A stretch of 64,000 nt of DNA from Octopus sinensis. Its lineage: Eukaryota. Shown in pieces: positions 29,128 through 55,536 of the stretch. The notes under the pieces were generated by a model, which saw nothing but the letters and a program-made list of their open reading frames with translations, was not told the origin of the DNA and did no database searches. The translations under genes and the position numbers were made by a program. The stretch lies in NCBI RefSeq assembly GCF_006345805.1, contig NC_043017.1, forward strand, positions 11,222,001 through 11,286,000, read 5' to 3'. Positions within the stretch are counted from its first letter, which is position 1. Each line of letters starts with the position of its first letter.

Positions 29128-29177
<50 letters not shown>

Positions 29178-29612: not shown

Positions 29613-29674
29613 CATTACAATCATACAATCATCATTATCATATGGTCATCGTATACAATTTCATTGCAAAACAG

Positions 29675-30727: not shown

Positions 30728-33700
30728 GTGAGTATTCACGTCCTGGGAGATGTCCTTCACTTAGCATGAGATCCTTTAGCCTATTATATATATATATACA
30801 TATTATATAACATAATAACACTGTACTATAAAAACCATAGCTTTAATTAACAGCAGGAAATTACCACTAAACCCTATCGTGCTTCTTACAATGATGATTT
30901 AACAAACTAATAAAATCATAGATGAAGTCATTGATTATGTAAGAGACTGAGAGAGCGTGAGAGAATATATTTGCATTTTAATAACTAATTATTAAGACTT
31001 TGCATTTTAGCAAGTAATTATAATTAAGTGTTTGCACATTGATAACTAACTTTTACTGACATATTTTTTTACCTTCTCTATTTTTGTCTCTTCTTCCTCC
31101 TATGAGCTTTCCTTCCCACTGCTCTGATATTTCCTAAGTCTCAGTCCCCTAATGTTTTGAATGTCTATTCACCTCTTTAATAATCTATCATTATTATTAT
31201 CATTATTATTATTATTGGGTTATATATTTATTTAGCAAAACAGTTTTAAATCTGTGATGTATAGTTCATAAACATATCTTGTTGATCTGACCATAATGAT
31301 CTTAGTCTCTTCGTGTTTTGTATGTCTCTTCAATTTTGCAATAATAATTATTATTGTTACTAATATTATTATTATTATTAGGTTATATATTTATTTAGCG
31401 AAACAGTTTTAAATCTGTGATGGTCTACAGTCCATAAACACAGCACCTTGAAGACCTGACCTTAATGATCTTAGCCGATGACCTCATCTTGTAACCCAGC
31501 ACTTCAGCCATGCATCAGCACAACCCCAGTCTGCACTTGGTCCTTAAACCCATCACCTTGACCATTCAACCAACTGTCCACACTTTACAGCCAATGTCTC
31601 GTCTCAGTATGACCTTAAATTTCAGTTAGGAATGATCTCTTTTTCTATTTTTTCCTTTTTTTTTCTCTTTTGCAATATGCAACTAGGACAGGAAAAGATC
31701 TTGGTTAACACAGATACATACACACACAAATATATATATTTATATTGTATGTTCTTTTATGTATGGCAGTATGAATTATTGATCATGTACCTTGTGAAAT
31801 CATGTACTGGAAAAAAATTAACACTAGATGGCTATAATCACAATCTCTATAAGTGTGAAACCGGTGTCTGACCACTGGTATGATGAAAAATTTCAATAAG
31901 CAAATTTTAACCGTTTAGCATTCAGATATTCCTCTGTCAAATGTAATGCCTATTTATTCACGTAATTTCAAGATTTTGAGTTGTTTATTTTTAGAATGAC
32001 ATTGAAGAGTGGGTGTGAGAGGCTGGATCTGACTGATTTTGATATAAAGCAGGAAGAATGTTTGAGCTAGAGAAGGCCAGTTCAAATGCTGAAGGGTTAA
32101 ATGAAAGATGTACTGGAGAACTTGTATAAAAAAAGACATTTACATAAAATATTTCGTTTTTATATTTAGTTTGCAAGATTCTTGATGTGAACTTGTGTGT
32201 TGGAACAGATTTTGTTGTATCTGGGTGTGGGGAGTCATTGTGCCAATAATAGACACACATACAGATTGTATGTTTGTTTGTTATTGTGTATGTGTGTGCA
32301 CGTATTTTTTTTGTGGGGTGGGGCATTGAAATAAGTACCAGTCAAATACTGGGGTTGATGTAATCCTCCTCCTCCTCCTCCAAAACTGTTGGCTCTGTGC
32401 CAAATTTGGAACCCTTATTGTGTGGATGTTCATTATAGGTATTGAAATTTACATCAAAACAAACTGGGAAATAGTTATTGAAATTAAAATAAAATAAAAT
32501 AAAATAAAATAAAGTAGCAGGGCAAATTACCATCCTGAAGCATTCTGTTGGGGCATGGGGCCTATTGTTTGTAAACTGGTATGGTCTTGGAAAATCAAGA
32601 CATGTGGACATCACATTCTAAAGTCATTTCTTAATCAGCTTAAATGATAAGCTGCCTAGAACTGCTAAACTATTGCGCGTTGTCGGGCGTCACCGTTTGC
32701 ATTGCGGTAGTAGCACGTCCACCTCCCGGTCGTTTCGGCCCGCACAGTTCCACCGAGGGTGCTCTTCGCCGAGTGTCCGAGGCGGCCGGTACGTTCACAC
32801 AGGGATGAGGTTTCTGCTTGTTCAGTGGTCTCCAGTCCCCAACAAACCAACCATGATACATTCTGAGCATTCGATAACTGAACATGATCTGCATTACATG
32901 ACTTTATAAAGGCTGTGGCTGCAGGCAATGAAGCTCTCGCCGTTCCACAAGTTCATCGGAGTCTGTTCAGGCACTTCCATAGGGGTTGTGCAACATCTGA
33001 TATGACAGATAAATAGAGGATGTCAGTAAAATATTCAGTGCCTAACAAGACTGGTGAAGGAGGCTAATTTTAGGGGTTATATATATATATTAAAAGAATA
33101 GTTATCTGTCTGTAATTAGATTTAATTAATGCTGCTTGTGCTAGCTAGCTAGCTTGGTATAATTAACTTTAATTATAGGCTGTGTTTGCTCTGGAAGAAG
33201 CATCCCTCCCCATCCTAAAATAAGTAAAAAAAAAAAAGGCCTCCAAAGTCATGGTTCGGGATGAGTGGCAGGATGTTAGAGAAGTGTTAATATGGCAACA
33301 AAAAATAACAACAGCTGAAAAAAAAAGTGTTGCTTTAATAGTAAAGATAAACTGTACGGGAGGATGCATGTGTTTGAACGTCTGTTGATGGACGAGACCA
33401 CACGTGCATAGAGTAAGCACAAAACCACCCACTTCTACCACCACCACCACCACCACTGCTGCTGCTGCTGGGGGAATGGTGTATATCGCATTTGATGGCA
33501 CAAAGGACACATGGGCATATTTGATCTGCCCCAATTTCAGGAACATATACTCAGGGATAAAAAAAGTCTTTAGTGCCTTAAAGCATGTTTGTATATTGAA
33601 CCCAAAGGGGACGTTTTTGAGACATTCTTTTGGAGGAAAATTATATCTCAGATGCCTTCAAATATGGTAACCAGGTGGATGTAGAGGAAGTGTGAAGAGA

Positions 33701-35665
33701 AATTTAAGACTCCACTTTTGTTTTGCTTTGTTTTCTTAACTTCCTGACTGACCAAAGCATTTTCCATAAGCTTGTCCTAAACATCCGTGATTGTTTTCAG
33801 TCTTTTAGTTAGGCCTTGCTTCATATGTTCTTAGTAAAATTAGGCTTTCCCTTTTTAAGTCCCAAATTAATCTGGTGGTTGAGAAAAAAATAACTGGAAA
33901 CGTGTCTCATATATGGTTAGAGACATCTTAGCAGCATCATACGCCCCCCCCCCCAAGGAAATCAAAGCACTGAGCGATATGGTGTTTATTGATTGACAGG
34001 ATACATAGATCAGAATTGGGACCCTAAATCCGTGAGGCCTCCAGACAACAGCCCAGTGTGCTCATGTCTTAAGACGGCCCTTTATATGAGGGTACATGGA
34101 TGCCAGGGAAATATGTCCTGGGTATCACATGTCACACACAGGACTGACATGGAGATTTTGGTCCATGGCACATCAGCATGAAAATGAAATATTTAAATGA
34201 ATGCTATGGATCAATCCCATTCTACTACTTGCTGGTTGTCCAGACATTTGCAGTGGGAGGTGGAGAATATATTAAAGTGAATGGGTGTGTGTGTATAACT
34301 AATACTGAAGGGCAGTTCTTAGAACTATTTAATGAATTTGAATCTTAGAAAATTAGGTTTTACAAAGTGAAAATGGAGAGGTTTAGAAGTTGGTGATAAA
34401 AGGCTGAGAGGGAGATCATATCATGTAAGGGCTTTTGATGTTGGTATTTTTGGCTGACATAATTACAGTTGTTATTATTTATTTGTAGCTGGTCATTATT
34501 TGTTATCTGTTTAGAGTGATGAGTAACTAACTGTAGCAATTATCAATCGTTGTGGTAAGTTAGAATGGTCACTAGAATGTGTTAGGGTCAGCGATTGCCT
34601 CTTTTGACCTGAATCAGTGTTGGAAATATATTAACGATAAAATGTGAAAACTGAACTCTATGTTGGTGTACTGTAAGATAAAGTGAGCACTACATGCTTA
34701 TATATGCACACACACACACTTACATACATACATACATGTACACACACACACCATTTATCTTTTACTTCTTTCAGTCATTGAATTGCAGCCATGCTGGAGC
34801 ACCACCTTGATGGTTCCAGTTCAACAAACTGACCCCAGTACTTCTTACAAACCTGGTACTCATTCAGTCAGTCTGTTTTGCTGAACTGCTAAGGGATGTA
34901 AACAAACCATCATCGATTGTCAAGCAAAGGCTGGAACAAATACACACACATATGTATATATACACAATAGGCTTCTTTCAGTTTCCACCTATGAAATTCA
35001 CTCACAAGGCATTGGTCAGCCTGGTTCTCTATAAGCAGACCCTTCCCCAAGGTACTGCAGAGTGGGACTGAACCCAAGACCACGTGGCTGCAAAAGCAGC
35101 TCTTTTGATATAAGATCGTACGGATTACTATATTGTTCAAGGCTGTCTGTTGTGATGTGCCTTCCAGGCTTTTCTCTTTTTGATATGGGGTGACAAAAAT
35201 AACGACTATAATTAGTAGGTTAATGACAGTGAGAGTTAGCATGAATCAGAGTGGAAAATATTTGTATGAGAGAATGGAAGAAAGATGGGCTGTAAGCTGG
35301 TGGGTTCTGGAGAGCAGAGACAATTGTATGTGACTGAGAGTGTGTGTGTGTGTGACTGTATGTATGTGTATATGCACACAGAACTAGACCTCAATTATCC
35401 AAAGGAGATAAGTAGAGGAGTATATGCATGTGTGTGTAATGCGTATGTATGTGTACAGGTGTGTATGTATAAGTGTGTGTGTGTGTGTATTTCATGCGTA
35501 TTTCAAGCATACAAGGGAAAAGTCGACTGACTTTGAAGCTTTGGCTTGATTGCCTTCTTGAGATCATTTGATGAAGATGAGTAATCGAATCCGGGTTGAA
35601 CCAGCCTATGATTAAAAATGTTCCAGAGTGAACCTTTGGGTCTGTTTATATATTGAAACATCAAC

Positions 35666-35748
<83 letters not shown>

Positions 35749-36949
35749 GTTTCCTTTTCCTTATTTTGTCTTAATGATAGCAAGATGTAATCTGAGGAGT
35801 GATATTGGTTGTTGTTTCTAGCTGCTTGCTTGAATGACCACCTAGAGTTTCCCTTCCTGGTTTGGGTTTTCCTCATACACAATCTTGTTGTTGTTGTTTA
35901 GACCTGGGTCAGTTCTGACTGAGAAGAAACCTGTTATTATCTCACTGGCTTCCTAATCCAATGGCACTCATTTACAACTATTGAAGGATATCAAAGCAAA
36001 TAGATACAGACACACATTGTCATCAATTATTAATGTCCATGTTCTATTGTCGCATGAATTGGATGATTTTCTCTAGAGTCTTGCTCTGGCATGGTTTTTA
36101 CAGCTGGGTGCCCTTCCCAACACCAACCACATTATAGGATATAGTGGTTACATTTAAAAAAAAATTTTTTTGTACCACTGGCACTAGTGAGATTGCCGTG
36201 CAGTTTGCAGGACTACAAAACTTGTGTCAGGATGGGAGTGGAACAGCTTTATGTAACGGGCTACTGAGAGTTTCTGTCTACCAAATCCATTCACAAGGCT
36301 TTGGGCAGCCTGGAGCTATAGAAGAAGACACTCGCCCAAGGTTCCATACAGTGGGACCAAACCCAGGACCATATGGTTGAGAGGATTACTACTGTATAGG
36401 GCCACTTGATATATTTTCTGAGTAAACAACAATAGTGTTTTGGGTTGTAAGCACTGTATGTTCTCTGTCATGCATGACTGTATCATCATGTTGTATGGTG
36501 TCCATTCATGCATGACTTCTTTCTCATTCTGTGTCACTCTGAGAAGTCTATTTGTGTGTATCTTCTAATCTATGTTGATGTTCTTGTTGTTTAGTTCAAG
36601 GTTTGCTTTGACTTTGTAAAAGTATTCTATTTATGACTAAAACCATTTCAGGCCCTTTATTGGTTTTCTGTTTGGTGGTGGTGGGACAAACCACAGACAG
36701 CATTATTGAATATGTCACTCCCTTTTCAAGATGGTAGGATGCAATTTAAAGATTTGGCTACTATTTCTAACCTCTAGTCAAGTGACCTTGTAGAAACTTC
36801 ATTGTTAGTAGTTGGGGATTCTTTTATATCTGTATCTGGTTGATGTGTGTGTGTGTGTGTGCTATAGTTTTATTTCTGAAATTACCTGACATAAATCAAT
36901 GTTTCGAATTTTTTCCCTAAACTACACTTTCATTTTCCATTCTAATAAT

Positions 36950-37337
36950 GGAATGGAAGCACTCCGTTGGTTACGACGATGAGGGTTCCGGTTGATCCAA
37001 ATCAACGGAACAGCCTGCTCGTGAAATTAACATGTAAGTGGCTGAGCACTCCACAGACACGTGTACCCTTAACATAGTTCTCGGGGATATTCAGCGTGAC
37101 ACAGAGAGTGACAAGGCCGGCCCTTTGAAATACAGGTACAACAGAAACAGGAAGTAAGAGTGAGAGAAAATTGTGGTGAAAGAGTACAGCGGGGATCACC
37201 ACCAACCCTGCCGGAGCTTCGTGGAGCTTTAGGTGTTTTCGCTCAATAAACACTCACAACGCCCGGTCTGGGAATCGAAACCGCGATCCTACGACCGCGA
37301 GTCCGCTGCCCTAACCACTGGGCCATTGCGCCTCCAC
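36950..37337 (-). mobile_element. tRNA-derived SINE family D, full length
   Basis: minus-strand head GGAGGCGCAATGGCCCAGTGGTTAGGGCAGCGGACTCG...GGTTTCGATTCC; flanking CATTCTAAT(A/G)AT direct repeat; related copy at about 63209-63490(+). Confidence 0.8.
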
Positions 37338-39164
37338 ATTCTAATGATACAGCAGTGGAGGTAGCAAAGCATAGGTCTGTGATTTGAGAAAACTTATCTT
37401 GGGGAACAATAGGGACCATGGAATGAAGAGAGACAGTTGGAATGGTGATAGTAGTAGTAGTAAATTTTGTTATACTGTATTATTAGCAACTATAATAATA
37501 ATTCTTTCTACTATAGGCATGAAGCCTAAAATTCTCAAGGAGTGGCTAGTCAATTACATCGACCCCAGAGCTCAACTGGTACTTACTTTATCGACCCTGA
37601 AAGGATGAAAGGCAAAGTCACCTTCAGCAAAATACCTAACAATATCCTGCTTGTTTTTACATTCTAAGTTCAAATCTTGCCAAAGCCAACTTCAACTTTT
37701 ATTCTTTCAGGGTCAATAACATAAAGTAATGGTCAAGTACTCAGGTCGATGCAATTGATTCTCCGCTCCCCAAAAACTTTCAGGCCTTCTACCTAGAGTA
37801 GAAACAATTATTATTATTCCCCATTCTGTTTTTTCCTTATGTCTTTGATGATGTTTATTCTAGGTTTATATTCTTTAGTAAAGTCTTCTGCTTGTTGTTG
37901 TTGTTGTTGGAAAGTCTGTCTTCGCTGGCTGGTTCCTGTCTTTTGTTTTAGCTTCCTTCATTCTCTTCTTTATGTCTTTATCGATCTTCCTATGTTTTCT
38001 TACTTCCTTCTGTTTCAATCTTTGCTTTCCATGGAGGTGCATGGCTTAGTGGTTAGGGTGTTGGACTCGTGATCGTAAGATTGTGATTTCAATTCCTGAA
38101 TCGGGTGACACATGGTGTTCTTGATCAAACCTCTTCATGTTGCTTTAGTTCACTCAGCTGGCAAAAATGAATGGTACCTGTGATGGACCAGTGTCCCATC
38201 CAGCAGGAGCATATATATATCATCATCATCATCATCGTTTAACGTCCGTTTTCTGCGCTAGCACGGGTTGGACGGTTCGACCGGGGTCTGGGAAGCCAGA
38301 AGGCTGCACCAGGCCCAGTCTGATCTGGCAGTGTTTCTACAGCTGGATGCCCTTCCTAACGCCAACCACTCTGCGAGTGTAGTGGGTGCTTTTTACGTGC
38401 CACTGGCACAGGTGCCAGGGGAGTCTGGCAGCGGCCACGATTGGTTGGTGCTTATATATATATATATATATATATGTAAGAAAATCCAGGAAACCAACCT
38501 GAGGAGTTTACATGACTCGGGAAGGGGCTTTATCCTTTATTCTTTTAATCTTAGCTTTCTGTACTTTTCTTTTCTCTATCTCTCTCTCTCTCATGCACAT
38601 CCACCCATATACCCACCTCCCCTGTACATCCAAAATCTAGTTTGCCAGCAATGGTTTAGGTTTATGACTGCTTACCCCCTTCTCCCTCCTAGAACTCCAC
38701 CTCCTGTCTTTACTGTCACAGTTTTGTATGTGTTTGTGGTATAAGTCTCAAGGCCTTCTTCAAACAGGAGTACGGTGTGTGTATGGGTGTATGTAATTTT
38801 GTGTAAATTTGTGTGTGTGTATATGTAAATGTCTATGTGTTTAGATTATTATGTTACTGGTAGGTTGTGGTGTGAACTTGTACCGAGAGACTCTCCTCGG
38901 CTTGTATGGATCATTGTTGTCAGTGAGTGAATCTGTGTGAATGTTCTCCTCTTAATGTCGGAGACTAAATAACGTAAACAACATAACACCATGAAGTCAG
39001 AAGCTTTAATATAAATATACCAACATTTATTGCTTCTTCATTGCTACCTTTTTCTCTCTCTCCCTCTATCCTACACCAGGTGTTTCATGCTTCAGTGCAT
39101 CTCCTACACACACACACACCCACACCCACAGTCTTGCGCATTCTCTGTCTGTCTGTCTCTCTTT

Positions 39165-39203
<39 letters not shown>

Positions 39204-39779
39204 GCACACACACACATCTATGCAGTCAGTACAGCTGCACCCTGTACACTTTTATTACTGTCAAATGAGAGATACCACTATTAATTCTATTTATTGTACC
39301 TGTGTAGGGGGTGGGGGATCTTTTATTTTGTCTTTGTTTACTTGTAGAACACCCTCTGTCTCCACCCCCCACCCCCACCACCCTCCTTCTCTCTTTCTCT
39401 CTCTCTCTCTCTCTCTGTTCTTGTTAATTGTCTTGGGGCAGAGATGCAGCTAACTTTTCTGTAACCTAAGAGAAATAAATAAAAAAAAACTGTCTTTCTC
39501 TCTTTCTCTTTGTGAATGTTTGTCTCTTTTGTGTAGATGTCTTCTTCTTTTCTCTGTCTGTCTGTCTCTCTCTCTGTTTGTGACTTTCGCTTCGGCAGTT
39601 TTCTCTATTTCTGCCTCTACGTCTTTTGTCTTTCTGTGTCTCTTTCTCTCTCTCAGTCTCTCTCTCCTACTCCTGATGCATCTACCATTATTTGCACTAC
39701 ACTACTGTCCACACACACACACATATATCTACACTGATTTACTTCCTAAATATAACTGAAAGATAACCTATTATTCCAG

Positions 39780-39807
39780 TACATATATGTGTTAGTATAT
39801 ACGTATG

Positions 39808-39889
<82 letters not shown>

Positions 39890-39893
39890 GTAT

Positions 39894-39938
<45 letters not shown>

Positions 39939-40056
39939 TTATATATATATATATATTATATATATATATATAGTATATATATATACACATACATGCGTGT
40001 GTATATTTGTGTGGGTATATATATAAGTATGTATGTATTTGTGTGTATGTCTATAA

Positions 40057-40087
<31 letters not shown>

Positions 40088-40137
40088 CACATACATGCGT
40101 ATGTATATTTGTGTGGGTATATATATATATAAGTATG

Positions 40138-40177
<40 letters not shown>

Positions 40178-40229
40178 CATACATGCGTGGGTATATATAT
40201 ATAAGTATGTATGTATATATGTATATATA

Positions 40230-40267
<38 letters not shown>

Positions 40268-40340
40268 CATGCGTGTGTATATTTGTGTGGGTATATATAT
40301 ATAAGTATGTATGTATTTGTGTGTATGTCTATAAATATGT
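39780..40340. repeat. TA-rich microsatellite with higher-order CATACATGCGTG...GTGGG units
   Basis: directly visible. Confidence 0.9.
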
Positions 40341-40464
40341 GCTTCTCTTAACATTCCCTTACACAATGATTAAAAAAAAAAAAGAATGGAAAAAAAATAT
40401 ATAAAGAGCCTAATTTTGTTGTTGCTGTTGTTATTGCTCTCAAATATTGTCAATAAAATTTTAG

Positions 40465-40545
40465 GTTCCACTGCATCGATTGAAATTGATGGAGCCGAAC
40501 AGATCAGCCTATTGTTTAAACAGTTGTTAGGAGAGGATATAAAAG
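40465..40545 (+). CDS. PKN: candidate 81-nt cassette exon of PKN ((S)STASIEIDGAEQISLLFKQLLGEDIK)
   Basis: attttAG acceptor, AAG|GTAAAT donor, length 3n, stop-free in the phase-1 frame required by the host intron, in non-repetitive sequence. Confidence 0.55.
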
Positions 40546-42918
40546 GTAAATCCAGCACGTAGACGACTACCAAGCAGCCCCCCCGTTGTAAGAATAGGAA
40601 TAGCAAAATTGTGCACTGCTGTAAAAGGGGTAGGTGGAAGGAGAAGGTGTACACACCCACACACACACACAGAGGCAAGCACCCCTGTATGATCACGTCT
40701 TTTAAACTCCTTTTGACAAACCAGCCTCATTTGCCTAAAGCCACCCTCTTGATTCTAACGTACATGACTGCCTGTTTTGAAATGTTCATATTTATTTATT
40801 CATTCATTTATTTATTTATTTATTAAAAACCATCCGTTTTTAATTCCATGTGAGAACTGTTAAAGCTATATTCCAGACATGAGTTTAATAATGGAAAAAA
40901 AAAAAAATAAATAAATGATTAAAAAGTTATTTTACTAAATTTGGTAATAACTTGATTACTGCTTTCATACTAAACTGAAACTTAAAGCGATGGTATCCCA
41001 TTATTAGAAATGTAATAACGAGCTATTAATTGTTCCCATAATTATGCATGAAGCTACAAGTTTATGTATTTTTATAATATATATATCATCTTCATCATCA
41101 TTGTCATCATCATCATCCTCATCATTGTTATTCTAATGTCTATTTTTCCATGCTTGCATGGCTCAGACAAGACTTGTTGAGGCAGAATATTCTGCAGTTA
41201 GCTGCTCTTCCTGTTGCCCTCTCCTCACCTGTTTTCGAGTGAGGTAATGTTTCCTGCTTGACCGTCAAACAGCATAAAAGCTCAAATGGCCAAACATGCT
41301 TCTCTGGAGGATTTGCAAACAAACAACAGACAAAACTTGTATGATGGTGACTTTGTTTACAAGCAGTGTACCATGTTTCAGAAGAAATGGGTATACACAT
41401 GCACACACACACACACACGTGCACAATAGGCTTCTTCCAGTTTCTGTGTGCTAAATTTCACTAACAAAGATCAACCTCCAACTATGGTAGAAGGCACCAG
41501 TTGGTGGTGTCCATTACAGTGGAAATGAACTCTGAACCTCATAGCTCCAAAGCAAATTTCTTAATCACACTGCCACTTTACCCACTGTCATCATCATTAG
41601 CTTTACGTCCATTTTTCCATGCTTGCATGTGTTTGAGGGAGTTTTATCGAGGCAGATTTTCTACAGCCGGATGCCCTTCCTGTCACTAACACTCATCTGT
41701 TTCCCAAGTGAGGTAATATTTCCCCATGACTGGACATGCTCTCTCAGAATACGCAAAATGAATGGCACTGCTTGTATGATAGTAACACTCGATTACAGCT
41801 ACTACACTTTGTGAAGACAAGGAGACACATACGCACGCGCTCACACACACGACAAGCCTTTCCAGTTTCCATCTACCAAATCCACTCACAAGGATTTGGA
41901 ACCTGAAACCAAATTCTTACAAAGCAAACCTCTCCCCCTTTGCAGCCTGTCCCATGCCTGTTATATATTTCCATAAATCCATCTAGACTGTCTGAGTTAA
42001 TTCAACTTTGTTTATTTGGGAAGTGAAAGTCTAAGAGAAAAATAAATGATTGTTTTCAAAATTTTTAATTAGATAATAATTATGTCAGTAAAATTATCAT
42101 CAACATCATCATTGTCATTAGTATTATTATCATTATCTTCTTTCAATTTTGTTTCCATTTCTTGCTGAGTGTCTTCCTGACACATTATTATTATTATTAT
42201 AAGTGTAGCGGGCTGGCAGAACCATTACTCTGCTAGACGTAATTCTATGTGATATTTCTTGTCTTTACATTCTGAGTTCAAATTCCACTGGGGTCAACTT
42301 TGCCTTTCATCCTTTTGGGGTCGGTGAAATAAATCCCAGTTGTGCACTGGGGTTGATGTCATCACCTGACCCCACTCTCCCAAAGTTGCAAGCCTTGTGC
42401 CTCTAATCAAAAGGATTATTATTATTATTGTTTTCATGCTAGGCAAAATGCTTAGCAGTATTTCATGCACCTTTATGTCCTGAATTGAAATTCTGCCAAG
42501 GTCCATCTTTTTGGGCTCAATGCAGTAAGTACCAGTTATGCACTGGGGCATTGAATATTGGACTCTCTCCCTCCCCACACATTTCATGCCTTGTGCCTAT
42601 GGTAGAAAGGAGTATCGTTATTATTGTTACTATTAGTTAGTGTTGTTATTTAGGTCAGAATTAGTAAAGTGATGGACAAAAGGACCTTGACATATTTTGC
42701 TTGATTTTCAGTTGTCTGTCTCATTAAAAATGAAATTATTAGTTGATTACTGGGGTTGATTCATTTTACTAATTAATACCCCCTGTCTCTAAAAATTAGT
42801 GGTTTTTGTGCATATATTAGATTGCATCTATATCGTTACCTCATCATCATTATTGTTTATTACTATCATCCTTCATCATCATCATTATGATTACTGTTAT
42901 TATTATTTTAATTTTTAA

Positions 42919-42950
<32 letters not shown>

Positions 42951-43263
42951 TCAACTAATAGTATCTCTTGTGTGAATGAAAAAAATTAATTAAAATATAC
43001 TTGACAAATTGTTTAACAGAGCTAATTGTCTTCTTGCCATTGTTAAAGTTTTTTTTCTTCTTTTTCTTCTTATTGATGTTGTTTCACACGCTGTTTTAAA
43101 TGTGTTTGAAATAGTGTTTGTTTGTCTGTCTGTCTGTATGTCTCTCTTTGACTGACTGACTGTCGCGGTCGGGATATTTATTCGCAAAATACCAAAAAAA
43201 AAAAAAAAAAAACAAGTTTGATCTTCTCCTTGATAACTCACTGCACCCTGCTTTCAATTTCAG

Positions 43264-43296
43264 GTGGTGCACCCACAGAGTGTTGTGTTGACAATG
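43264..43296 (+). CDS. PKN: candidate 33-nt microexon of PKN (GAPTECCVDN)
   Basis: ctcactgcaccctgctttcaatttcAG acceptor, ATG|GTATGT donor, symmetric phase 1, stop-free. Confidence 0.65.
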
Positions 43297-43587
43297 GTAT
43301 GTGAAAAAGCAACTTTTTAACTGGTTGCGTCAGCGACCAAACTGTTGCTGTTTCTACACACCCCGAGAGCCAAAAAAAAATATATATTTAAAAATTAACG
43401 ATTTCAAAAAAAAAAACCATCTTACATGTGTTCTTGACTGTTTGTTTCAATTTTTCAAATCTCAATTTGTTTGATTTCTTTTTTTCCTCTCCCTTACCTC
43501 TCTGCATTCCATATTTATTAATATCCATTATTGGTATGACCTTTTTTTGGTTATTTTTCTTTTTGTCTTTCTTCCCACCTCTGATAG

Positions 43588-43591
43588 CTTC
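43588..43591 (+). CDS. candidate 4-nt microexon CTTC (phase 1 to 2 switch)
   Basis: first AG after about 215 AG-free, pyrimidine-rich nt is followed by CTTC and a perfect GTAAGT donor. Confidence 0.35.
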
Positions 43592-43913
43592 GTAAGTAAA
43601 TCGTCTTCTGTTGAGTTTTTTTTTTTTTGTTTTGTTTTGGTGTTGTTCTTCTGTTTATTTGAAAAATCTTCAATTCATTGATTTTCGTTTTTGTATGGTC
43701 ATGGTGTTTTCAGTGGAAAAATACAAAAAAGAAGCCCTTATTATCTTTTCTTTCATTCATTCTTTCTTTCAGTCTTTGGTATCTTCTGCTGCTAAGTGTT
43801 ACTGTCAATATGAAGATTTAACTTCAGTGCTTATACATACATACATATATATATATATAAAAATATATATAATATATTATATATTATATATATATATATG
43901 CACACCACACACA

Positions 43914-45010
43914 TGTTGAGTTGTCAGATAAATTCAGGGTCCACCCACCTATTTATTTTAATCTTTATTTTCCATTCAAAGATGTTAACAAATCAATCCA
44001 ATATCTTCTCCTTCATTGTTCAAGACTTCTTGACTTCTTGTCAATATTCTACAAACTTACCAATTCCTTGACTCAGATTCATTGAGCCACCTTCTCAGTT
44101 TTCATCGATGTTCAACAAATCACCTTACAGACGGTCAGAAAGCGATCAAAAAGTCAATAATTTGAAGGCAGTTCCTCAAATAGTATTTTTGGTCTAGTTA
44201 GTGATGTGGGTGGTGGGAGGCAGCCTTGTTGCATTGGAGAAATATGCAATGTTGCCATTTTGGCTTGTTTCACTCTGGATGGCCTTGTTGAGCAGGTGCA
44301 TTGATTGTGCAGTTGTTTTCAAGCATTTTATTGTGTATCAGCCCTTTGCAGTCCCACCAAATGCAGCTCTGGCTTGGCACCAGCCGGTACTTGCTTTTCA
44401 GGATTCGGCTATTGTTTGTGTCCAAGAGTAGCCTGATATTGCACGAGCAAATTGGTGGAGATGAAAGAGCACTGGAATTTGTCTCTTTTGTTCAGAGTGT
44501 GTGATGCCCCTGCATTGAGTTTTTGAACCTTACCCATCGACTGAAAGTGACGGGCAGTGGTCTTGTGGGAGGATCCCATCTGCTGGACCAAGTCCCTAGT
44601 GAACTGACATAGATCCCTGCCGATGAACATATTCAATCGATCTACATTGAACTGAATGAGCTGGCAAGATGCCAAGTCTGTGAAGTCAAATTTTCCTTCT
44701 TTGAAACTTGGAAACCATTTCCGTGTAGTTCTTTCAGTAATTGCTTCTCTGCACACAACACAGATGTCTTCAGTGTCTTTGACAGCTTTGGGATCAAAAA
44801 TGCTTGTTTCCTTTTTTTTTTACTATTTGGCATTCTGTCATCATATTTCTGAAAAAAAGGTAAAATTTATTCAAATTTCAAAACCTAAAGTTGGAGAGGA
44901 AAAATAGAGCTACAAAAAAAAAAACTAAAAAATATTGCAATTAAAGTATTTTTCGTATTAATTTAAATAACATTGAAAAGAAACCTACGAATATATCTGA
45001 CAACCCAATA
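43914..45010 (-). mobile_element. decayed mariner transposon
   Basis: imperfect TIRs (TGTTGAGTTGTCAGATAAATTC / GAATATATCTGACAACCCAATA); minus ORF 44409-44756 AITERTTRKWFPSFKEGKFD...TRDL...HKTT.RH..SMGKVQKL matches the mariner transposase HTH region; stops and frameshifts. Confidence 0.85.
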
Positions 45011-45337
45011 TACACACATACCTATATACAGGGGTTTCTCCTTCAAATTTGTCATTATAGCTCTCAGTTTAATTTTCTTCTGTTTTGATTACCCTGTTGT
45101 CTATCTCAATTCTGGCATTGTTAACTAATTTAAATGTTGTCACTGTAAAATGGAGCAGATTTTTCTCTTTTTTATTAATTAACAGCCAATTACATCAGTG
45201 GTTAGTCCTTGCAGAATTGTAAAAGAATGTAAACATTAGATAGTTTTGTAAGGCATGACAATGTTTTATAGAAAAACTTGTTGTACCCTAAATTACAATA
45301 AAGCTTCGTACATTTGCTAGTTCAGATGTAAAACTAC

Positions 45338-45770
45338 ATCATCATCATTGTTTAACTTCCGCTTTCCATGCTAGCATGGGTTGGACGGTTCAACTAGGGT
45401 CTGGGAAGCCCGAAGGCTGCACCAGGCCAGTCAGATCTGGCAGTGTTTCTACGGCTGGATGCCCTTCCTAACGCCAACCACTCCGTGAGTGTGGTGGGTG
45501 CTTTTTATGTGCCACCGACACAGGTGCCAGACGAAGCTGGCGAACGGCCACGCTCGGATGGTGTTTTTTTTATGTGCCACCAACACAGGTGCCAGACGAG
45601 GCTGGCGAACGGCCATGCTCGGATGGTGTTTTTTACGTGCCACCAGCATGGAGGCCAGGCGAGGCTGGCACGGCCACAATCGGATGGTGTTTGTTACGTG
45701 CCCACAGCACGGAGACCAGTCGATGCGTTACTGGCTATGGCCACGTTCGGATGGTTTTCTTATGTGCCTA
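45338..45770 (-). mobile_element. family C copy with several tandem ~57-60 bp 5' subrepeats
   Basis: repeated GGATGGTG-TTTT-TACGTGCCACC...GGCCA unit next to the family C body. Confidence 0.75.
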
Positions 45771-45873
45771 TACTGTATATGTGCAGGTGTGGTAAGAAGT
45801 TAGCTTTCCAACCTCATGGCTCCAGTATCAGTTCCACTGTGTGGCATTGAGGGCAAATGTCTTCTACTATACT

Positions 45874-45987
45874 ATTTCTCCTGTTTGTTGTTCTGCTTAA
45901 AGTAACATAGGATTGGCCATGACTAAACACTGGCTTTTTGTAGGTAAACCCCAACCATGTCAACGATTGGCTCTGAGACTTATTATG
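45874..45987 (-). mobile_element. Helitron/PIF1 helicase C-terminal motif fragment
   Basis: HNKSQSQSLTWLGFTYKKPVFSHGQSYVTLSR matches INKSQGQ.L..VG.....PVFSHGQLYVALSR. Confidence 0.8.
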
Positions 45988-46364
45988 TATTTCTTTATTG
46001 CTCACAAGGGGCTAAACACAGAGGGAACAAACAAGGACAGACAAACGGATTAAGTCGATTATATCGACCCCAGTGCGTAACTGGTACTTATTTAATCGAC
46101 CTAGAAAGGATGAAAGGCAAAGTCGGCCTCGGCGGAATTTGAACTCAGAACATAGCGGCAGGCGAAATACCGCTAAGCATTTTGCCCCGCGTGCTAACGT
46201 TTCTGCCAGCTCGCCTTTTTTTTTTTTTTTTTTTTAACAAATGAAAGGATAGCAGGGAACTGTCTCCTTTTTTTTCATATTTACATTGTTTTGCTATTCT
46301 GTGATAATTAATCAATGATGTCATTGTTTATTAATTAAAAAAGAAAAAAATTTCCATCATACAG

Positions 46365-46526
46365 TGATGACATGTTTGATGATGAGGAGGAAGTTGAGAC
46401 AGACAGCAATGTAATGCACACTGAACGTAAAGAGATTGTAGGCAATGATGGTAACTTTGAGGCTGATGTTGATGAGATTCAAGTTGATAATGATGAATCT
46501 GAGGGAAGAAGCACTCTCTGCGGGGG
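46365..46526 (+). CDS. candidate 162-nt acidic exon ([53 protein letters not shown])
   Basis: tttccatcatacAG acceptor, GG|GTATGT donor, open Asp/Glu-rich frame entered in phase 2; the phase-1 reading hits TAA. Confidence 0.45.
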
Positions 46527-46555
46527 GTATGTGTGTGTGCACAGGCAGGTGTGCA

Positions 46556-46722
<167 letters not shown>

Positions 46723-47615
46723 TTGTTTGTACCTTAGCAATATACATACATGCATATGTATATATGTGTGTGTGTATATGTAAAAGTACATGATCCAATG
46801 GTTAAGGTGTTGACCTCATGATCATAAGGTCATGAGTTCAATTCCTTGACTGGGAAGCATATTGTGCCCTTAAGCAAGACACTTTATTTCACATTACTCC
46901 AGTCTACTCAGCTGTAAATGCGTACCAGTCATATACTGGTGAAGCTCTCCTTTCCTCCAGCTGTTTCATCCTGGATCAAGGATGAGGGGGCCAGGAGGTA
47001 GTCTGTGTCTGCTTGTGACTTCACAGGCACCTAAAGCAATTAAAGAAAGCATGGTATATGCTACTAAGTTGTACTCATGAATGATGGTTCATATACATAT
47101 ACACACACGTCTGGAGGTACAAAAGAAAGAGTACTCAATCCATGTAAGAGTACAAAAGAAGAAGAAAAAAAAACTGATGATTTACTCCATTACTATGTGT
47201 GATCTTTCAGTCAGGTGATGGATTTCGAATAATTTTGGACGATCTCATATAGAAGAGGACTCTTGAGTAAGCAACAGAGTGAATCATCAGCTTTTGCCAA
47301 ATATATATATGTATAGCAGACTGTTCCATTGTTGGTCAGTTCAACAAAGGAAGTACCTCATCCAGCGAGAGATAAGTTTCATTTAATAAACGTGGGATTT
47401 AACTATGACCTACTGTAAGTTTCATGGTTGGATGGTACAGATATTGGATGGGCTTGTATAACTTGCCGTGTGCTACCCTGCAATTGTTTAGGTTCAAAAT
47501 CCAATTACTGTACTGCTGAACATGAAAAGTATAGTAGCTCACCTATAAATCCTTTATTAAATGATGTTATTGTGTGCATGTATATATGTAACATACATAT
47601 ATTTATTTATTTATC

Positions 47616-47693
<78 letters not shown>

Positions 47694-47709
47694 ATATTAT
47701 ATATATATT

Positions 47710-47757
<48 letters not shown>

Positions 47758-47789
47758 ATTTATATTTATATATATTATATATTTATATT

Positions 47790-47823
<34 letters not shown>

Positions 47824-48169
47824 ATATTATATATATATATATGTAGTTTGCTAATAGAATTAACAGCATATTGAGGAGAGAATAATGTCGTTATTTTGGT
47901 TCTTTTCGTTTCTTTGTTGTTTTCTTTTCTTTTTCTTCTTGTTGGCGCTGTTTGAATGTATTGAGTGATACTCTCTTGTATCTTCTTAATACAGACACCA
48001 AACATACAAACAAACAAACAATTTTACAGTTTGAAGCCCCCCTCAGTAATATATAATATAATATATATCTTCGTGTTTTGTTACTGGAGTTGATGTATAT
48101 ATTTATATACACGCACAGATATATACATAAAATACTTAAATAGATTCTTATCTGTATCACTGCTTTCAG

Positions 48170-48214
48170 CTTTTAAGTTAGCTTATCAGGGATGTCAAAA
48201 TCAACACCATGAAG
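48170..48214 (+). CDS. PKN: candidate 45-nt cassette exon of PKN (FKLAYQGCQNQHHE)
   Basis: atcactgctttcAG acceptor, AAG|GTATGA donor, symmetric phase 1, stop-free; an internal AG at 48188-48189 gives a 25-nt alternative. Confidence 0.5.
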
Positions 48215-49021
48215 GTATGACCATTCTTCCTTACCGTGTATTGTATATTTTTCTTCTTCTTCTTCTTCTTATTTGTTGCTGATATATTAATGGACTTTTT
48301 CAAAGTAAATCGTTATATAATATGTCCTTCGTGAAAAAGCTGTGAATGCTTCTTTAACGACTTTTCTTCAGTTTATTTCTTCCGTTCAGCTAAATGTTGT
48401 TTCATTTTCGTGACGTTTCGTGAAAGCTTTGTTGTACGTATGACTGGTTCTTACACAAACTGACAATTTCATCAGTTTTCTACAGAATTTATCTTCAGAT
48501 GGTGATGAAAGAATAGCGTGATAGATGGGAGCAGTTCATTCAAGCTGTCTCTCTCTCTGTCTGTCTATCTATCTGTCTTAATTTAATGAGGTAAAAATTG
48601 ACCCCCTCTCTTCTTGTTGAACTTCCTTCTTAACCTGTAAATAAAGGTTTAATCAGGTATTTAAAATATATTTTTGTTTCTATTGATCTCTTGATCTTAT
48701 CAAAGTAAACTTTATCGTGTTTACAAGGGAGCTGAAGCAATGCCAGTCTAGTACTGGTTGTCGGTATGATAATCGTCTGTACCTTCATGTAAAAAGTGTG
48801 TGACCTTGTGTTGATATCAAGATAGCAGTGTTGTAAGTTAGCTATGAAGACAAAAAGCAAAGCAAAATAGATAAGAAATAAACAGTTAAATCTGAAAAAT
48901 TCTCATTCAATTATAATGTTTTGTGTGTATATTTAATTATTTCCATGTATATTTAGTTATTTCCCAGCAAAACAAATCATGTGACAGCCATTAAAATCTA
49001 TGGGAATGATTGGTGGATGTA

Positions 49022-49087
<66 letters not shown>

Positions 49088-49730
49088 CATGTGAGCAAGC
49101 ATGTGTCTAAGAAGAAATATAAGTGTTTGTAAAAATGCCTATGTTTCTCGTTAAATTGCACAAAATTTCAATGAAATAGCATTGAAATATTATCATATAA
49201 TGTATTTTATTAATATTTTCACCTCACTGTCCAATAGAATTTAAAACTTTAGAGTTATGTGGAGTTTGTATTAAATTTGACAGTTTGTGTAAAAGCAAAT
49301 GAAAACGCATTATGCCATCTGCATGTCTTTTGTTATATAGATGGAACAAAAAATTAGATGCACAAGCAAACTTACGCATAAATCTTTCAAATATCTCAGT
49401 GCAGAAAATCATCATTTGTTCTATAAGGATTGGTTTCTAAGTTCATTGTGTGAAATGCATAGATACATTTTTGAAGCTCTGAAGAAGCTATAAGGTGATG
49501 CACTTGCACTCAGCTCGGTGTGTTCTACATCATATAGCAGAAACAGCTATAAGCATATGATAATCACTGCATAATTTCCTGTCCCCTTGTCATTTATTTA
49601 ATTTCATATTATGCTCTATACTTGACTAACTCTTTATTCTGAAGCATATATATATATATATATATATATAATGAGTTTTAACACCAGGGTATAAGTATCA
49701 CTATGCCTAAGCAAAATAAATGTGTGTGTG

Positions 49731-49766
<36 letters not shown>

Positions 49767-50109
49767 CACGCATGCATACACACCCACATATACATACATG
49801 TATGTGTATATACTTATTCTATTGGACTCTTTTGCTGAACTGCTAAGTTACGGTCATGTAAACGAACCAACATCGGTTGTCAAGTAATTGGGGGGACAAA
49901 CATATACACACACACACACATATATGATGGGCTTCTTCCAGTTTCCGTCTACCAAACCCACTCACAAGGCTTTGGTCAGCCTGAGGCTATAGTAGAAGAC
50001 ATTTCCCCATGGTGTCACGCAGTGAGACTGAACCCGGAACCATGTGGTTTGCTAAGTAAGCTACTTACCACACAGCCACGTCTGCATCTATGTATGTATG
50101 TATATTGTT

Positions 50110-50490
50110 GGCATCCTTTTGTCTCTGGAGACAATGGAGTTGTGCATAAACTAATCCAGTCGGATTTTTACATTTCATGTCCTCTCCAGTTTTGCGCAGG
50201 CCTGGGCTAGATGTAAGAAAATCCTGGGTAGCCCAATCGTCAGGATTCCTCTCTCAACCTTGCTGACGTAGTCCAAAGGAGTGCAGAGCATTACGTTTGG
50301 CACCAGCTTAGTGGCAGGAGCTGCCGGAAGAGTGTCGAGTCGAACACTGAACCACCTATGGGGCTCCACTCCGGATTTCTTTGAAGGTTGTCTCCTTTCT
50401 GTAACCCTGGATAGGGGCCCATACTGGGTACTGTCAGCCGGAGCCAGCTGAGCCTGTGACTCGTGTCTGGCAGGGTTGTCACTCCCTGAA
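50110..50490 (-). mobile_element. probable RTE-type LINE 5' UTR fragment
   Basis: GC-richer block with GTTTGGCACCAGC...GCAGGAGCTGCC and GTAGTCCAAAGG motifs recalled from RTE 5' regions; not alignment-verified. Confidence 0.4.
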
Positions 50491-52362
50491 GTAATGAAGA
50501 AAATCACTACCCACTACCTATATATGTGTGTATATATATATATGTGTGTATATATATATATGTGTATATATATGTGTGTGTATATATATATATGTGTGTA
50601 TATATGTGTATATATATATATATATGTGTATATATATATATATATATATACATATGCACACACACATGCACAAAACGATATACATAACGTGTGTGTCTAT
50701 ATATGTATGTATATTAGAGAGAGAATTTGATATTTACTGTTCCCATAAACACATGAAACCCTATATTTAGAACTACACATACACGTGTTTGCAACCTATC
50801 TCAGCTAAATATTCCCACTTTTGAAGTTTGCCATTTGATAAGAATTTGATGAAATTAATCATCGTTATCTATTCGGAGCCAATGTGTTCAGTTAAACCTT
50901 TTTTGTTCTCCTTTATTTTTGATGATGACTTTAGACATTAACTTCTGAAATCTAAAAGTCCTGTATTTTTATTTTATTCATTCATTTATGCTTGTACTGC
51001 TACAATTTCTATACTTTTTATTTTTTTTGGTTTTTTACTAATTATTAACTTACTAATTGTTGTAATATATTTTTCTCTTCTTTTGAAGAATTTATCTTTT
51101 AATTTATGTAAGCTCATTTCTTGTTGTTGTTGTTGCTCTTGTTGTTGTATCCTTAATTAAGGCTGTTGTATTCTAAGTGGCAAACATTTATTATTAAGTT
51201 TTTTTTATATATATATATATGTTGACTATATTGTTAGTGCATATCTGTATATATGTGTGTAAGTGTGTGTGTGCACATAAAATAAAAATGTGAGACTGCT
51301 CCAGCATGGACATGATCTTACAGCTCCCATCATTAAAAGAATATAGTAAAATAGGAAGAAAAAACGCATGCACAACAAATGCAGACAAGCTCGACACCCT
51401 TCATCAGTTGTCAACCAAATATCATTACAATTTTAACACCTTGTGACAAAACTGTGCAGTTGGGTGGTGTGAGTGACATAAGCTGCTAGGGTAGAAATGA
51501 GCAGGCATGATAGAGAAACACGAGTAGGGGAAAAAAAATGAGACAAGTGCAGTGACAAGATGAGGTCTGTTAAATGGATGGTAAAGACAAGTTAGAGAAG
51601 AATGAGTAACAAAAAAAAATTCTATCTAATGAAAGAAACAAATTTGACAACAGGAAAAATAATGACACAGAAAGATATTTGTATACCTTAAATGTCTTTT
51701 GACCCCGTGACAGAAATATGATGTGTTGGGGACCAGCTTTTCTTGTATAGATGTTTCATTAACCCTTTCATATTCAGATTGTTCTGTCAGATATAATGTT
51801 TATTTCTTCATATTGTTTTGAATTAATCCTGCATTATCTCCTAGCTTTGAGATTTCAGTGACATTGTTTAAGAGGCCAGATCTGGTCAGTTTGACCATAA
51901 AACAAGTAGAATATTAAATACATAACTGCATTCAAGTTTTATCCTTTTTATTCTAGATTTTACATATTTTCTTAGTTTTTTTTTTTTTGTATAGTATTGT
52001 TTGAAACTAACTGTAAAAAAAAAAAGAAAAAGAATATATTAAAAAATTGGAAATAAAAAGGATAAAATAAGCCTAACCATGTATTTAATGAAATGTGTGT
52101 GTGTATATATGTATATGTGTGTGCATGCATATGTGTATTTATGTGTGTGTGTGCATATTGTATATGTGAAGCGGGGAAAATCCAGGTAATTACCTCAGCC
52201 AACACTCATATGAATATTGCATGAAATTATGTAATTATTGCTTATGTTGATTCTGGTATGTTAAATGATCGATCTAATCCATGTTATTGAAATAATTATA
52301 ATAAAGATGATACCAATATCTACATATATTCATTATGTGTATGTATGTATGTATGTATATAT

Positions 52363-52643
52363 ATACTAAGTAATTAAGGGTTTAGCAACGATTTGCCTCA
52401 CCACACACCGAATTTAGAAATAGCAGTCAAAGAGTTTACCGAATTTAGAAATAGCAGTCAAAGAGTTTACCGAATTTAGAAATAGCAGTCAAAGAGTTTA
52501 CCGAATTTAGAAATAGCAGTCAAAGAGTTTTGGCTATTCTTTCTACTTTTAAGTAGAAAGAATAGCCAAAACTCTTTGACTGCTATTTCTAAATTCGGTG
52601 TGTGGTGAGGCAAATCGTTGCTAAACCCTTAATTACTTAGTAT
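52363..52643. repeat. fold-back palindrome: 93-bp arms, 2-nt spacer, 31-bp unit x4 in the left arm
   Basis: 52551-52643 is the reverse complement of 52363-52548 after removing three extra ACCGAATTTAGAAATAGCAGTCAAAGAGTTT units. Confidence 0.93.
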
Positions 52644-53210
52644 TACTTAAACCTTCCTTGAATGGGGCTTTGACATGCCGAACTCTACTTGGTGAAATTA
52701 ATGATTATTCCAAATTAATTAATTTCACCCTTTATTATTATATATATATATATATAATATATATATATATATACACACATATATACACATACATAGGTAT
52801 ACATATATTGTCTATTTTGTTATATTTATCATGTATATTTTCGGTATTCTGTTTTGCCCATTTTAACCAATAAGACATTAATTAATACATAATTATATTT
52901 ATTTATTTTTATTTGCTATTTCATTTTATTCCACTCTATTTATTTATTAATTTAAAAGTTTGGAAATACCATAATATTTACATATTTAATTTGAATTTTC
53001 TGTTTAAATTTTTTTCTTTCTTTATTCTAAAAAAATTGTTAAATAATTGCCGGCATGTTAAAATCTTTTATATTAATTTTCTTACTGGTTCTATAGTTAC
53101 TGTTGTTGGGTGTTTCAATCTGTATCTTCCCCATATCTGTTGATTGTACATTTATATCCTCTCAGGATTTATTCAGCAAAAACCTAATTTCTGAATAATT
53201 TATCTTCATA

Positions 53211-53586
53211 TAACCCTTTAGCCTTTGGATCTCACTGTCAAAGGTGATGATTATTTATTTACATTAGTTGGAATTAATCCCACTTAATTAATCTCAGAGC
53301 TTCAAGATTTCGATGATGTGATTGCATATTTTTTTTAGAACAACATTGTAGGGTAGGCATGAGAGGTTGGATCAAGCCAGTTTCAACATAAAACTCATAA
53401 TATTTTGACCAGTTCTGGTCGGTTTAAATGCTAAAGGGTTAATGTCCAAGATTTCGATGATGTGATTGCATATTTTTAGAACGACATTGTAGGGTAGGCA
53501 TGAGAGGTTGGATCAAGCCAGTTTCAACATAAAACTCATAATATTTTGACCAGTTCTGGTTGGTTTAAATGCTAATGGGTTAATGT
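53211..53586. mobile_element. TAACCCTTTAGC-type MITE with its right ~144 bp tandemly duplicated
   Basis: left TIR at 53211; right TIR GCTAAAGGGTTAA near 53430 and again near 53571; unit starts at 53303 and 53447. Confidence 0.75.
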
Positions 53587-55426
53587 TCATTTTCTTTGCT
53601 AGTGTGGGTTGGACAGTTTGACAGGATCCTATGAGTCCAGCAGCCACATTGTGCTCTAATGTTGACCATAGCATGGTTTCTATGGCTGAGTATTTTCCCT
53701 ATTGTCACTCACTTTACAAAGTGTACTAGTTGCTTTATTTTATATGGCACCAGCACTAGTGAGGTTGCCATGTAGCTTGCAAGACTAAGATTCTCCTTTG
53801 ATTGAGTCAGGCTACAGTTGAGAAGGAAAATACTGCATATCCAAAGACAAGTTAACTTGGTTCCTGTGTCTCAAGTGCACATGCATGGAACTGAATAAAT
53901 TCGATTCCTGCATAGTAAGGGTTAAAATAGCAAATAGGAAGGATTCAGGGGATAGAATATAGTTTATTTTGTTTTTCAGTGGATGGATGGTCAGTGAAAT
54001 CTTGAAAAGGAAAGGAGCTTTTACTGTAGGTGCCTGATCTTAACACACACCATTGAAATAAAAATAGTAATAAGTCCCCTGACAATTACTGTCTCAAGCC
54101 CCGGGACTCACAGGGTTGATTGACCAGTTCGCATGGTATACAAGCAACCAGGATCACTATTTTCCCCCCCATTGAATGGGGGGCGAGTCCTTCATGGGAT
54201 AACTCAATTTTGCCAGCTAAGCGGACTGGAGCAGTGTGGAATGAAGTGTTTTGCTCAAGAACACAATGTGCTGGCTAGCCTGGGAATCGAACCCATAATC
54301 TTGCAATCATGATTACAATACCCTAACCATTAGGTCTTGTACCTTCACATTGAAATGAAACAAAGGAAAATTCTAAAATTGCCATTTTTTAAAAAAGAAC
54401 ACATAGATTAATATGATTGATCTAATGTTGGAACTTGGATGGGGAGTTCTTGGTGGTACGAGGGTATTTGATCATTGATAAACTATCTATGATTTATGTA
54501 AGAAACTCAGTGCGTGAGATAATGAGCTCAGTCATTGGACTGTAAGTTCACATATCACTGCAGACATTTAGACAATGTTCCAGAGTGAAACACTCAATGC
54601 TTCTTGTCTAAAAACAATTAGCATATTTAAGAATTTTTTTCCTTCTTTTCTTTGTGTTCTGTATATATATATATTTTTTTTTTTATTTATTTGTTTACTT
54701 TTTAGTTGAAGAGAATATTGAAAATATATTCTTTAACTCTTTTGATACAAATTCACCTGAGACTACCCCTAGTTCCGTGATGCAAATCCCCTTCTTCAAA
54801 GCAATCTAAATTAAGACCTTCCATCAAAACTCTGTGTTGATTTGTTTCAGAAAACCAGCTTAATATTGCCAGAGTTACCTTAATGAATTCTTCATTATGT
54901 TCAAAATTAATTGCAACAAAGGCAGTGTATTTTGGGAAGAAATCATCAACATAATCATCACTATCATCCTTTAACATCTGGCAGGGGCTGAATGGTTCAA
55001 CAAGAGCTGGTGAGCCCGGAGACTTGACCAAGCTCCTATGTCTCTGCTTTGGTATTTTCTACAGCTAGATACCCTTCTTGACATAAACCCCTGTACAAAG
55101 TGTACTGGATGCTTTTTATGTGACACCAGCACCAGTTAGGTCACTGGGTAACTTGCAAGGCAAGGCCCTTCAACAGAGTTTGTGGGGGAAATTAGGGCAT
55201 TGAGGGGGGAAATGGGCTTTGTGTCAGGTAATAAAAGATTAATGGTAACAAAAGGGTTAAAAATGATAATGAAAGCCTGAACCAAATTTATATTTTTTTT
55301 TGTTCTCCCTAAATCTTTTTTGTTTTTAAATTATAAAATATTTCCCCTTGAACATTTCAACGTTGAGTTTTTAAACTTGTAACTTATGGTGATTTTTCTT
55401 TCTTTTTCTCTCTTTTGATATTTCAG

Positions 55427-55536
55427 ATGATGTTATGGCTGTGATGAAACTAGATAACCAGCATGTTGGACAGACCCCCTGGAAACCCTGTAGCCAACAG
55501 TGTTGGGATTATAGAACAAGTATCAACTTAGATAGG
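55427..55536 (+). CDS. PKN: PKN exon, C2-like domain (DVMAVMKLDNQHVGQTPWKPCSQQCWDYRTSINLDR)
   Basis: long pyrimidine tract and tttcAG acceptor, AGG|GTAAAG donor; matches PKN V.AV.KLDN..VGQT.WKP...Q.WD......LDR; phase 1 to 0; too short for the ORF track. Confidence 0.96.

Follow-up and report, generated by a model that had tools for sequence, protein, structure and literature searches.

A 33-nucleotide cassette exon in octopus PKN2 and its possible neural regulation

The analysed window, a stretch of 64,000 nucleotides of Octopus sinensis, contains part of the gene for the protein kinase PKN2 (Table 1). This part runs from HR1b as far as the linker that precedes the kinase domain, and nine constitutive exons were mapped in it by tblastn, separated by introns that are all long or medium in length. 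It is evident from the octopus PKN2 protein that the gene has the PKN/PRK architecture of three HR1 repeats, C2-like beta-sandwich strands and an AGC kinase domain with its C-terminal tail. Pfam detects HR1 three times, Pkinase and Pkinase_C, the best fold match in the PDB is human PKN2 (4crs, 76%), and the exon preceding the constitutive exon U matches HR1c of PKN1. Exon U is 100% identical with the Octopus bimaculoides protein kinase N2 records, and the exons of the window agree with the O. sinensis model X1 even at residues that differ in the O. vulgaris or O. bimaculoides records. Two O. bimaculoides models (P0001 and P0017) have intron sequence in place of the HR1c/C2 exon at 29675-29895; this looks like a fault of assembly or annotation. 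Elsewhere in the window, the block at 2001-4000 has a GC content of 0.086 and a GC skew of 0.97 and is likely a long simple repeat.

Table 1. Positions of PKN2 features in the window
Feature	Position	Strand	Basis or remark
Host gene PKN2, part within the window	21439..63044	+	tblastn of public models; Pfam
Exon U, upstream constitutive (end of C2-like beta1 and loop)	30561..30727	+	Frame; 22 models
Alternative donor in exon U	after 30643	+	Takes out 84 nt (28 aa)
E81, 81-nt phase 1-1 cassette exon (STASIEIDG...EDIK)	40465..40545	+	In 8/22 models
E33 acceptor	43217..43263	+	Sequence; ends in CAG at 43261-43263
Predicted hairpin, first TGC (TGCACC) paired with exon start (GGTGCA), AG covered	43242..43271	+	Folding
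E33, 33-nt phase 1-1 cassette exon, encodes (S/G)GAPTECCVDN	43264..43296	+	Sequence; Octopus models
E33 donor GTATGT (ATG|GTATGT)	43297..43302	+	Sequence
E45, 45-nt phase 1-1 cassette exon (FKLAYQGCQNQHHE)	48170..48214	+	In 13/22 models; TGC at 48161
Exon D, downstream constitutive (C2-like beta2 onward, DVMAVMKLDN)	55427..55536	+	Public models

Exon U ends with ...TCA A|GTGAGT (DENLS-A|GTGAGT in the protein reading), and exon D begins with cag|AT GAT GTT. The 24.7-kb intron between them contains three cassette exons, E81, E33 and E45. E33 lies 2718 and 4873 nucleotides from the neighbouring cassettes, and 12.5 and 12.1 kb from U and D. A sequence-only reading had proposed E33 as a microexon, and the letters of its acceptor, exon and donor are exactly as claimed. 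The branch-like motifs and the two TGC that it described before the AG were located at 43234-43237 (TAAC), 43237-43241 (CTCAC), 43242-43244 and 43249-43251. CTCAC fits YTNAY, a loose branch-site pattern, and not CTAAY; an exact CUAAY does not occur at E33. The upstream part of the acceptor contains TCTTCTC at 43222-43228. The AG-free zone is 45 nucleotides, since the nearest earlier AG is at 43215-43216. Both flanking introns are of phase 1, so that inclusion of E33 keeps the frame and reads S-GAPTECCVDN; skipping of all cassettes reads NLS-N-DVMAV.

The two U donors and the three cassettes allow 16 combinations, against which we matched 22 Octopus PKN2 proteins spanning this region; P0018, which starts inside D, was excluded. 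All the combinations are open in frame, and 8 of them explain all 22 proteins. The long form of exon U is used in 13 proteins and the short form in nine. E33 is present in 10 proteins and absent from 12, with all three cassettes skipped in 8. The 10 records with E33 (7 from O. sinensis, 2 from O. bimaculoides and 1 from O. vulgaris, including XP_036367851.1, XP_036367853.1, XP_052831247.1 and CAI9738444.1) carry an identical peptide, so GAPTECCVDN, which was to be sought in orthologous records, is found unchanged in gene models of three Octopus species. In all 10 of them E33 is followed by E45, whereas E45 occurs without E33 in three models; E81 occurs alone in one. The modelled product is therefore ...NLS-S-GAPTECCVDN-A-FKLAYQGCQNQHHE-D-DVMAV. 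The frame and the S-GAPTECCVDN part of the inclusion reading given earlier stand, and its junction VDN-D-DVMAV is found in none of the 22 models. What that reading missed is that E33 belongs to a set of three cassettes and never appears in the models without E45. Mutually exclusive, Dscam-like splicing of the cassettes was considered and rejected, because all three co-occur in 7 of the 22 models. Inclusion and skipping are documented here by predicted gene models and not by junction reads; annotation pipelines commonly build such models on junctions in RNA-seq data. These results confirm that E33 is a real, annotated and alternative cassette exon.

We further inspected contig sets X1, X9, X11 and X14 over 40400-43790. 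Among the contigs listed, mostly dispersed repeats, no spliced piece or joint was found at 43264 or 43296. The contig depth in the E33 bin (5.96 in X1, 6.7 in X9, 0 in X11 and 0 in X14) comes from unspliced contigs alone. Since contigs drop rare forms, this result is neither for nor against the splicing of E33. Two unspliced contigs cover the exon. The one from run X9 (43223-43380) has zero differences from the window, and the one from run X1, of a second organism (43223-43456), differs only at 43371, 43405 and 43416. The acceptor from 43223 on, the exon and the donor are thus unchanged in both contigs. Another X1 contig (40465-40646) begins exactly at the E81 acceptor and continues into the next intron, which is a weak hint of partly spliced RNA.

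When the 24.7-kb intron was scanned with loose rules, 12 candidate symmetric short exons came up, three of which have TGC and a pyrimidine-rich acceptor, and two of these three (E33 and 48170-48214) occur in public protein models. The same kind of scan on the minus strand of the 64-kb window also returned 12 candidates, one of them with TGC and a pyrimidine-rich acceptor. The scan result for E33 exceeds chance. Rule scans pointed to further short exon-like candidates at 61574-61579 (6 nt), 21832-21849 (18 nt), 38693-38725 (33 nt) and 14261-14274 (14 nt), which are probably chance matches: the 6-nt candidate at 61574-61579 adds no residues in any of the 24 cephalopod proteins checked, and the one at 38693-38725 is in none of the 22 Octopus models. 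About 290 nucleotides downstream of E33, a 4-nt exon-like sequence, ctgatag|CTTC|gtaagt (43588-43591), follows a strong pyrimidine tract. None of the 22 models contains this sequence, which would shift the frame; it is possibly a poison microexon or a chance match. The intron also contains two ORF fragments that are acidic and look coding (46339-46530 on the plus strand and 54753-55058 on the minus strand), possibly remains of mobile elements.

The acceptor of E33 had been likened to those of SRRM3/4-dependent neural microexons. Exons of this class are reported to use a bipartite enhancer, UCU_CUC[N1-50]UGC, and the strict vertebrate definition of a microexon is 3-27 nucleotides (10.1101/2024.09.17.613571). 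In the fly, eMIC exons are described as having a median length of 31 nucleotides, short flanking introns, characteristic splice-site strengths, a strong branch point with the consensus CUAAY, a UC-rich tract, a long AG exclusion zone and UGC close to the 3′ splice site; inclusion drops in the eMIC mutant for 161 of the 173 exons under eMIC control, up to a third of the neural exons depend on eMIC, and the eMIC domain is placed in bilaterian ancestors (PMC8797185). Alternative splicing in O. vulgaris is reported to be highest in neural tissue (PMC9699675). As a control set we took 316 YAG sites, on both strands of the window, that are rich in pyrimidines and have an AG-free zone, and counted TGC in the last 25 nucleotides. 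TGC is present in 131 of the 316 sites, two TGC in 25 of them, and TGC lies near the AG in 3 of the 9 constitutive PKN2 acceptors. TGC alone is thus weak evidence for eMIC regulation, since 131 control sites have one. The E33 acceptor also carries the bipartite UCU_CUC...UGC element, which the sequence-only reading had not named. In a test designed after viewing the sequence, with the underscore taken as one free base, this element occurs in 4 of the 316 control sites, E33 included, and only E33 adds a branch-like motif. It is found in none of the nine constitutive acceptors and is absent from E81 and E45; the E45 acceptor has one TGC 5 nucleotides before the AG, and no TGC lies within the final 25 nucleotides of the E81 acceptor. 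The likeness to an eMIC-type acceptor holds for the two TGC, the AG-free zone and the bipartite motif, and it is weakened by the frequency of TGC by chance and by a length of 33 nucleotides, which exceeds 3-27.

Folding places the first TGC and the AG of E33 in a predicted hairpin of −9.8 kcal/mol. Its z score is −1.7 at 35 nucleotides, where 11 of 200 shuffled sequences are as good, and +0.4 at 62 nucleotides. The stability is matched by 12 of the 316 comparable acceptors and is far above that of 11 other acceptors of PKN2. The hairpin may add to skipping, although the folding result is not significant, and as the main mechanism it was rejected for the same lack of significance against shuffles. 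There were no Rfam matches to a structured RNA family in 30700-55500.

At the protein level, the E33 site appears to be the end of a predicted disordered beta1-beta2 loop in the C2-like domain. In the AlphaFold2 model of the skipped form (P0030), the C2 strands are at residues 315-327 and 379-386, with a loop of pLDDT below 50 at 334-375. In the model of the E33+E45 form (P0034), the strands are kept at 360-370 and 450-457, and residues 372-448, among them the insert, are of low confidence and have no secondary structure. Both models have a mean pLDDT of 57 and a pTM of 0.28-0.29, and because of this low overall confidence only the local topology was used. With the strands kept in both forms, the insert is predicted to lengthen the loop right before beta2. 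E33 and E45 together add 26 residues (3 Cys and 2 His) just ahead of this strand, in the pattern CC-x12-C-x4-HH. The C2-like domain of PKN is reported to bind lipids and to have a role in activation (PMC7925014, PMC10956426), and to help to relieve autoinhibition in PKN1 (PMC10956426); since it binds lipids, loop inserts could tune the site of kinase activity.

The Cys-Cys pair of E33 had been suggested as a palmitoylation or redox site. C429-C430 of P0034 are cytosolic and exposed, in the unstructured low-confidence loop of the AlphaFold2 model. Their neighbours are acidic, and nothing beyond the pair itself speaks for the modification. In the context E-CC-V-D, the 10 residues before the pair contain 0-1 K/R and 1-3 D/E in three isoforms. 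In P0034 there are 0 K/R and 2 D/E in the 10 upstream residues, and 4 K/R and 3 D/E in 25, the 4 K/R being supplied by the long U donor. S-acylation of the pair is one possible route, and an unlikely one.

We then surveyed PKN proteins for inserts at the same position. The peptide of E33 is found in 10 of 260 PKN proteins, all from Octopus. The survey drew on the best 120 of 2028 matches, in which vertebrates are barely sampled, and our pattern parsed 238 of the 260 proteins; those left over are fragments, Octopus forms with the short donor, and two fish proteins. Single Argonauta and Acanthosepion models lack E33, as do six decapod-like proteins covering its position; as evidence of absence this is weak. 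A search with residues 418-492 of P0033 gave 3 proteins among 43 candidates, all from Octopus. A 45-residue query of E33+E45 found nothing among 1.84 billion cluster representatives and is too weak to argue for absence, as the octopus protein itself was also missed. Different inserts are found at this position in other lophotrochozoans. The cuttlefish-like P0021 has 15 additional residues with an E45-like peptide, LRLVYYGCQAPKQE, and the chiton Liolophura has 5 (P0052), 7 (P0207) or none (P0206). Three of eight full-length records of the land snail Bradybaena have 8 additional residues with a Cys, two of three records of the nemertean Tubulanus have 16, and P0059 has 5 that resemble the chiton insert. 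P0072, P0013 and P0208 are among the records in which these optional C2-loop inserts were noted. In insects and bivalves no insert was seen in any record parsed from these best 120 of 2028 matches. Judging from isoform pairs, the lophotrochozoan inserts appear to be separate exons. The chiton SKRNS and the P0059 SKQKS look alike, and by their residues they may represent an old 15-nucleotide microexon.

On balance we favour, with somewhat more confidence than doubt, the reading that E33 is an optional PKN2 exon that is skipped by default and included in neurons by an eMIC/Srrm234 protein through UGC, together with E45, so that the C2 loop is lengthened and the binding of lipids or partners is tuned. 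Default skipping would follow from an acceptor that is weak next to the AG, where the pyrimidine run is broken by the two TGC and a hairpin is possible. In octopus, which we take to possess an eMIC isoform, a neural eMIC-bearing Srrm234 would bind the UGC and recruit U2AF/SF1, and E33 and E45 would be spliced in together. The C2 sandwich is predicted to stay intact, with the insert tuning lipid or partner binding and not catalysis; such tuning would shift where PKN, a Rho effector kinase, is activated. Neural inclusion of E33 is likely. E33 might instead be regulated by PTB/CELF-type factors or by the hairpin, with inclusion specific to muscle, gonad or a stage, or simply coupled to E45. TCTT/CTCT motifs number 12 and 10 per 300 nucleotides around E33 against a background of 4.4, and UG motifs upstream of it number 8 against 2.7. 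The hairpin is predicted across the first TGC and the AG, E33 never occurs without E45 in the models, and in the fly eMIC is reported not to regulate about two thirds of the neural exons or the majority of those in muscle and gonad (PMC8797185). PTB-type motifs, however, also flank SRRM4 targets according to the same source (PMC8797185), the hairpin is not significant, and the bipartite motif is rare at control sites. We regard regulation of this non-eMIC kind as possible, on the unlikely side.

It could also be argued that E33 is a young, weakly included and nearly neutral exon of Octopus, annotated from few reads and tolerated by a floppy loop. Outside Octopus it was not found in the proteins searched, the loop accepts inserts of many lengths, and species-restricted neural exons are described as common outside vertebrates and insects (10.64898/2026.09.05.749416). 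Yet three species share exactly its peptide although they differ in a nearby linker (PETTPAP versus PETTAAS), seven O. sinensis isoform records contain it, and its partner E45 has a cuttlefish-like counterpart, all of which make near-neutrality improbable. That E33 is no exon at all, just a chance AG...GT match copied between gene models, is very hard to believe. Loose scans do return chance candidates, as the minus strand of the window illustrates, and the O. vulgaris records, to judge from their names, may borrow other annotations; but gene models of different origin, covering three species, either contain or omit exactly this segment, in four of the eight combinations seen, all of them in frame. 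The reading of E33 as an optional exon with neural eMIC-dependent inclusion is the one we retain.

E33 is already present in public models and its class is well known. What is new here is the three-cassette module, the coupling of E33 with E45 and the finding that PKN of other lophotrochozoans has recurrent inserts at the E33 site. In the literature searched on octopus microexons and eMIC or on PKN2 microexons there is no report of E33; the long-read annotation of O. vulgaris (PMC9699675, data S1) may contain the exon and its tissue pattern. If E33 is neural and eMIC-dependent, it would be a ready test exon for a cephalopod microexon programme, with E45 (one TGC) and E81 (none) as built-in comparisons among its neighbours, and PKN would join those genes in which neural exons have been gained more than once at a single site. 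A broader reading would take this intron, located where the C2 beta1-beta2 loop ends, as a lophotrochozoan hotspot of repeatedly arisen small exons, and the two donors and three cassettes of octopus as a neural module, in which E33+E45 would give neurons a lipid-anchored or metal- or redox-gated Rho-effector kinase. We consider this a long shot. Were it true, it would amount to a splicing switch of kinase location, undescribed for PKN.

Among known systems, the closest are the Octopus PKN2 isoforms in RefSeq and GenBank, in which the exact same peptide is already present; these are predicted models without a statement of tissue or function, and in them E33 always runs into E45. The neural exons regulated by eMIC (SRRM3/SRRM4, Srrm234) resemble E33 in being short frame-keeping cassettes with a UGC between branch site and AG, a long AG-free zone and an upstream UC-rich element, here the bipartite enhancer. 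E33 differs from them in its length, 33 against 3-27 nucleotides, and in multi-kb flanking introns where those of fly targets are short; the fly median of 31 nucleotides, however, places E33 with the short eMIC exons of invertebrates. Three exons of fly Pkn (264, 210 and 190 nucleotides) are classed in Table S2 of the fly study as ASE, not as eMIC (PMC8797185). Recurrent (type I convergent) neural exons have been described in one protein region across bilaterians, in an article whose main text has no match to PKN (10.64898/2026.09.05.749416). The PKN site is like them in that orthologues from several lineages carry different small inserts at a single position. The alternatively spliced STREX exon of the BK channel carries an S-acylated di-cysteine, C645:646, whose acylation needs a polybasic stretch immediately upstream (PMC4122160). 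As in STREX, an optional exon brings Cys-Cys into a cytosolic segment, whereas E33 has no upstream polybasic stretch and PKN is a soluble kinase.
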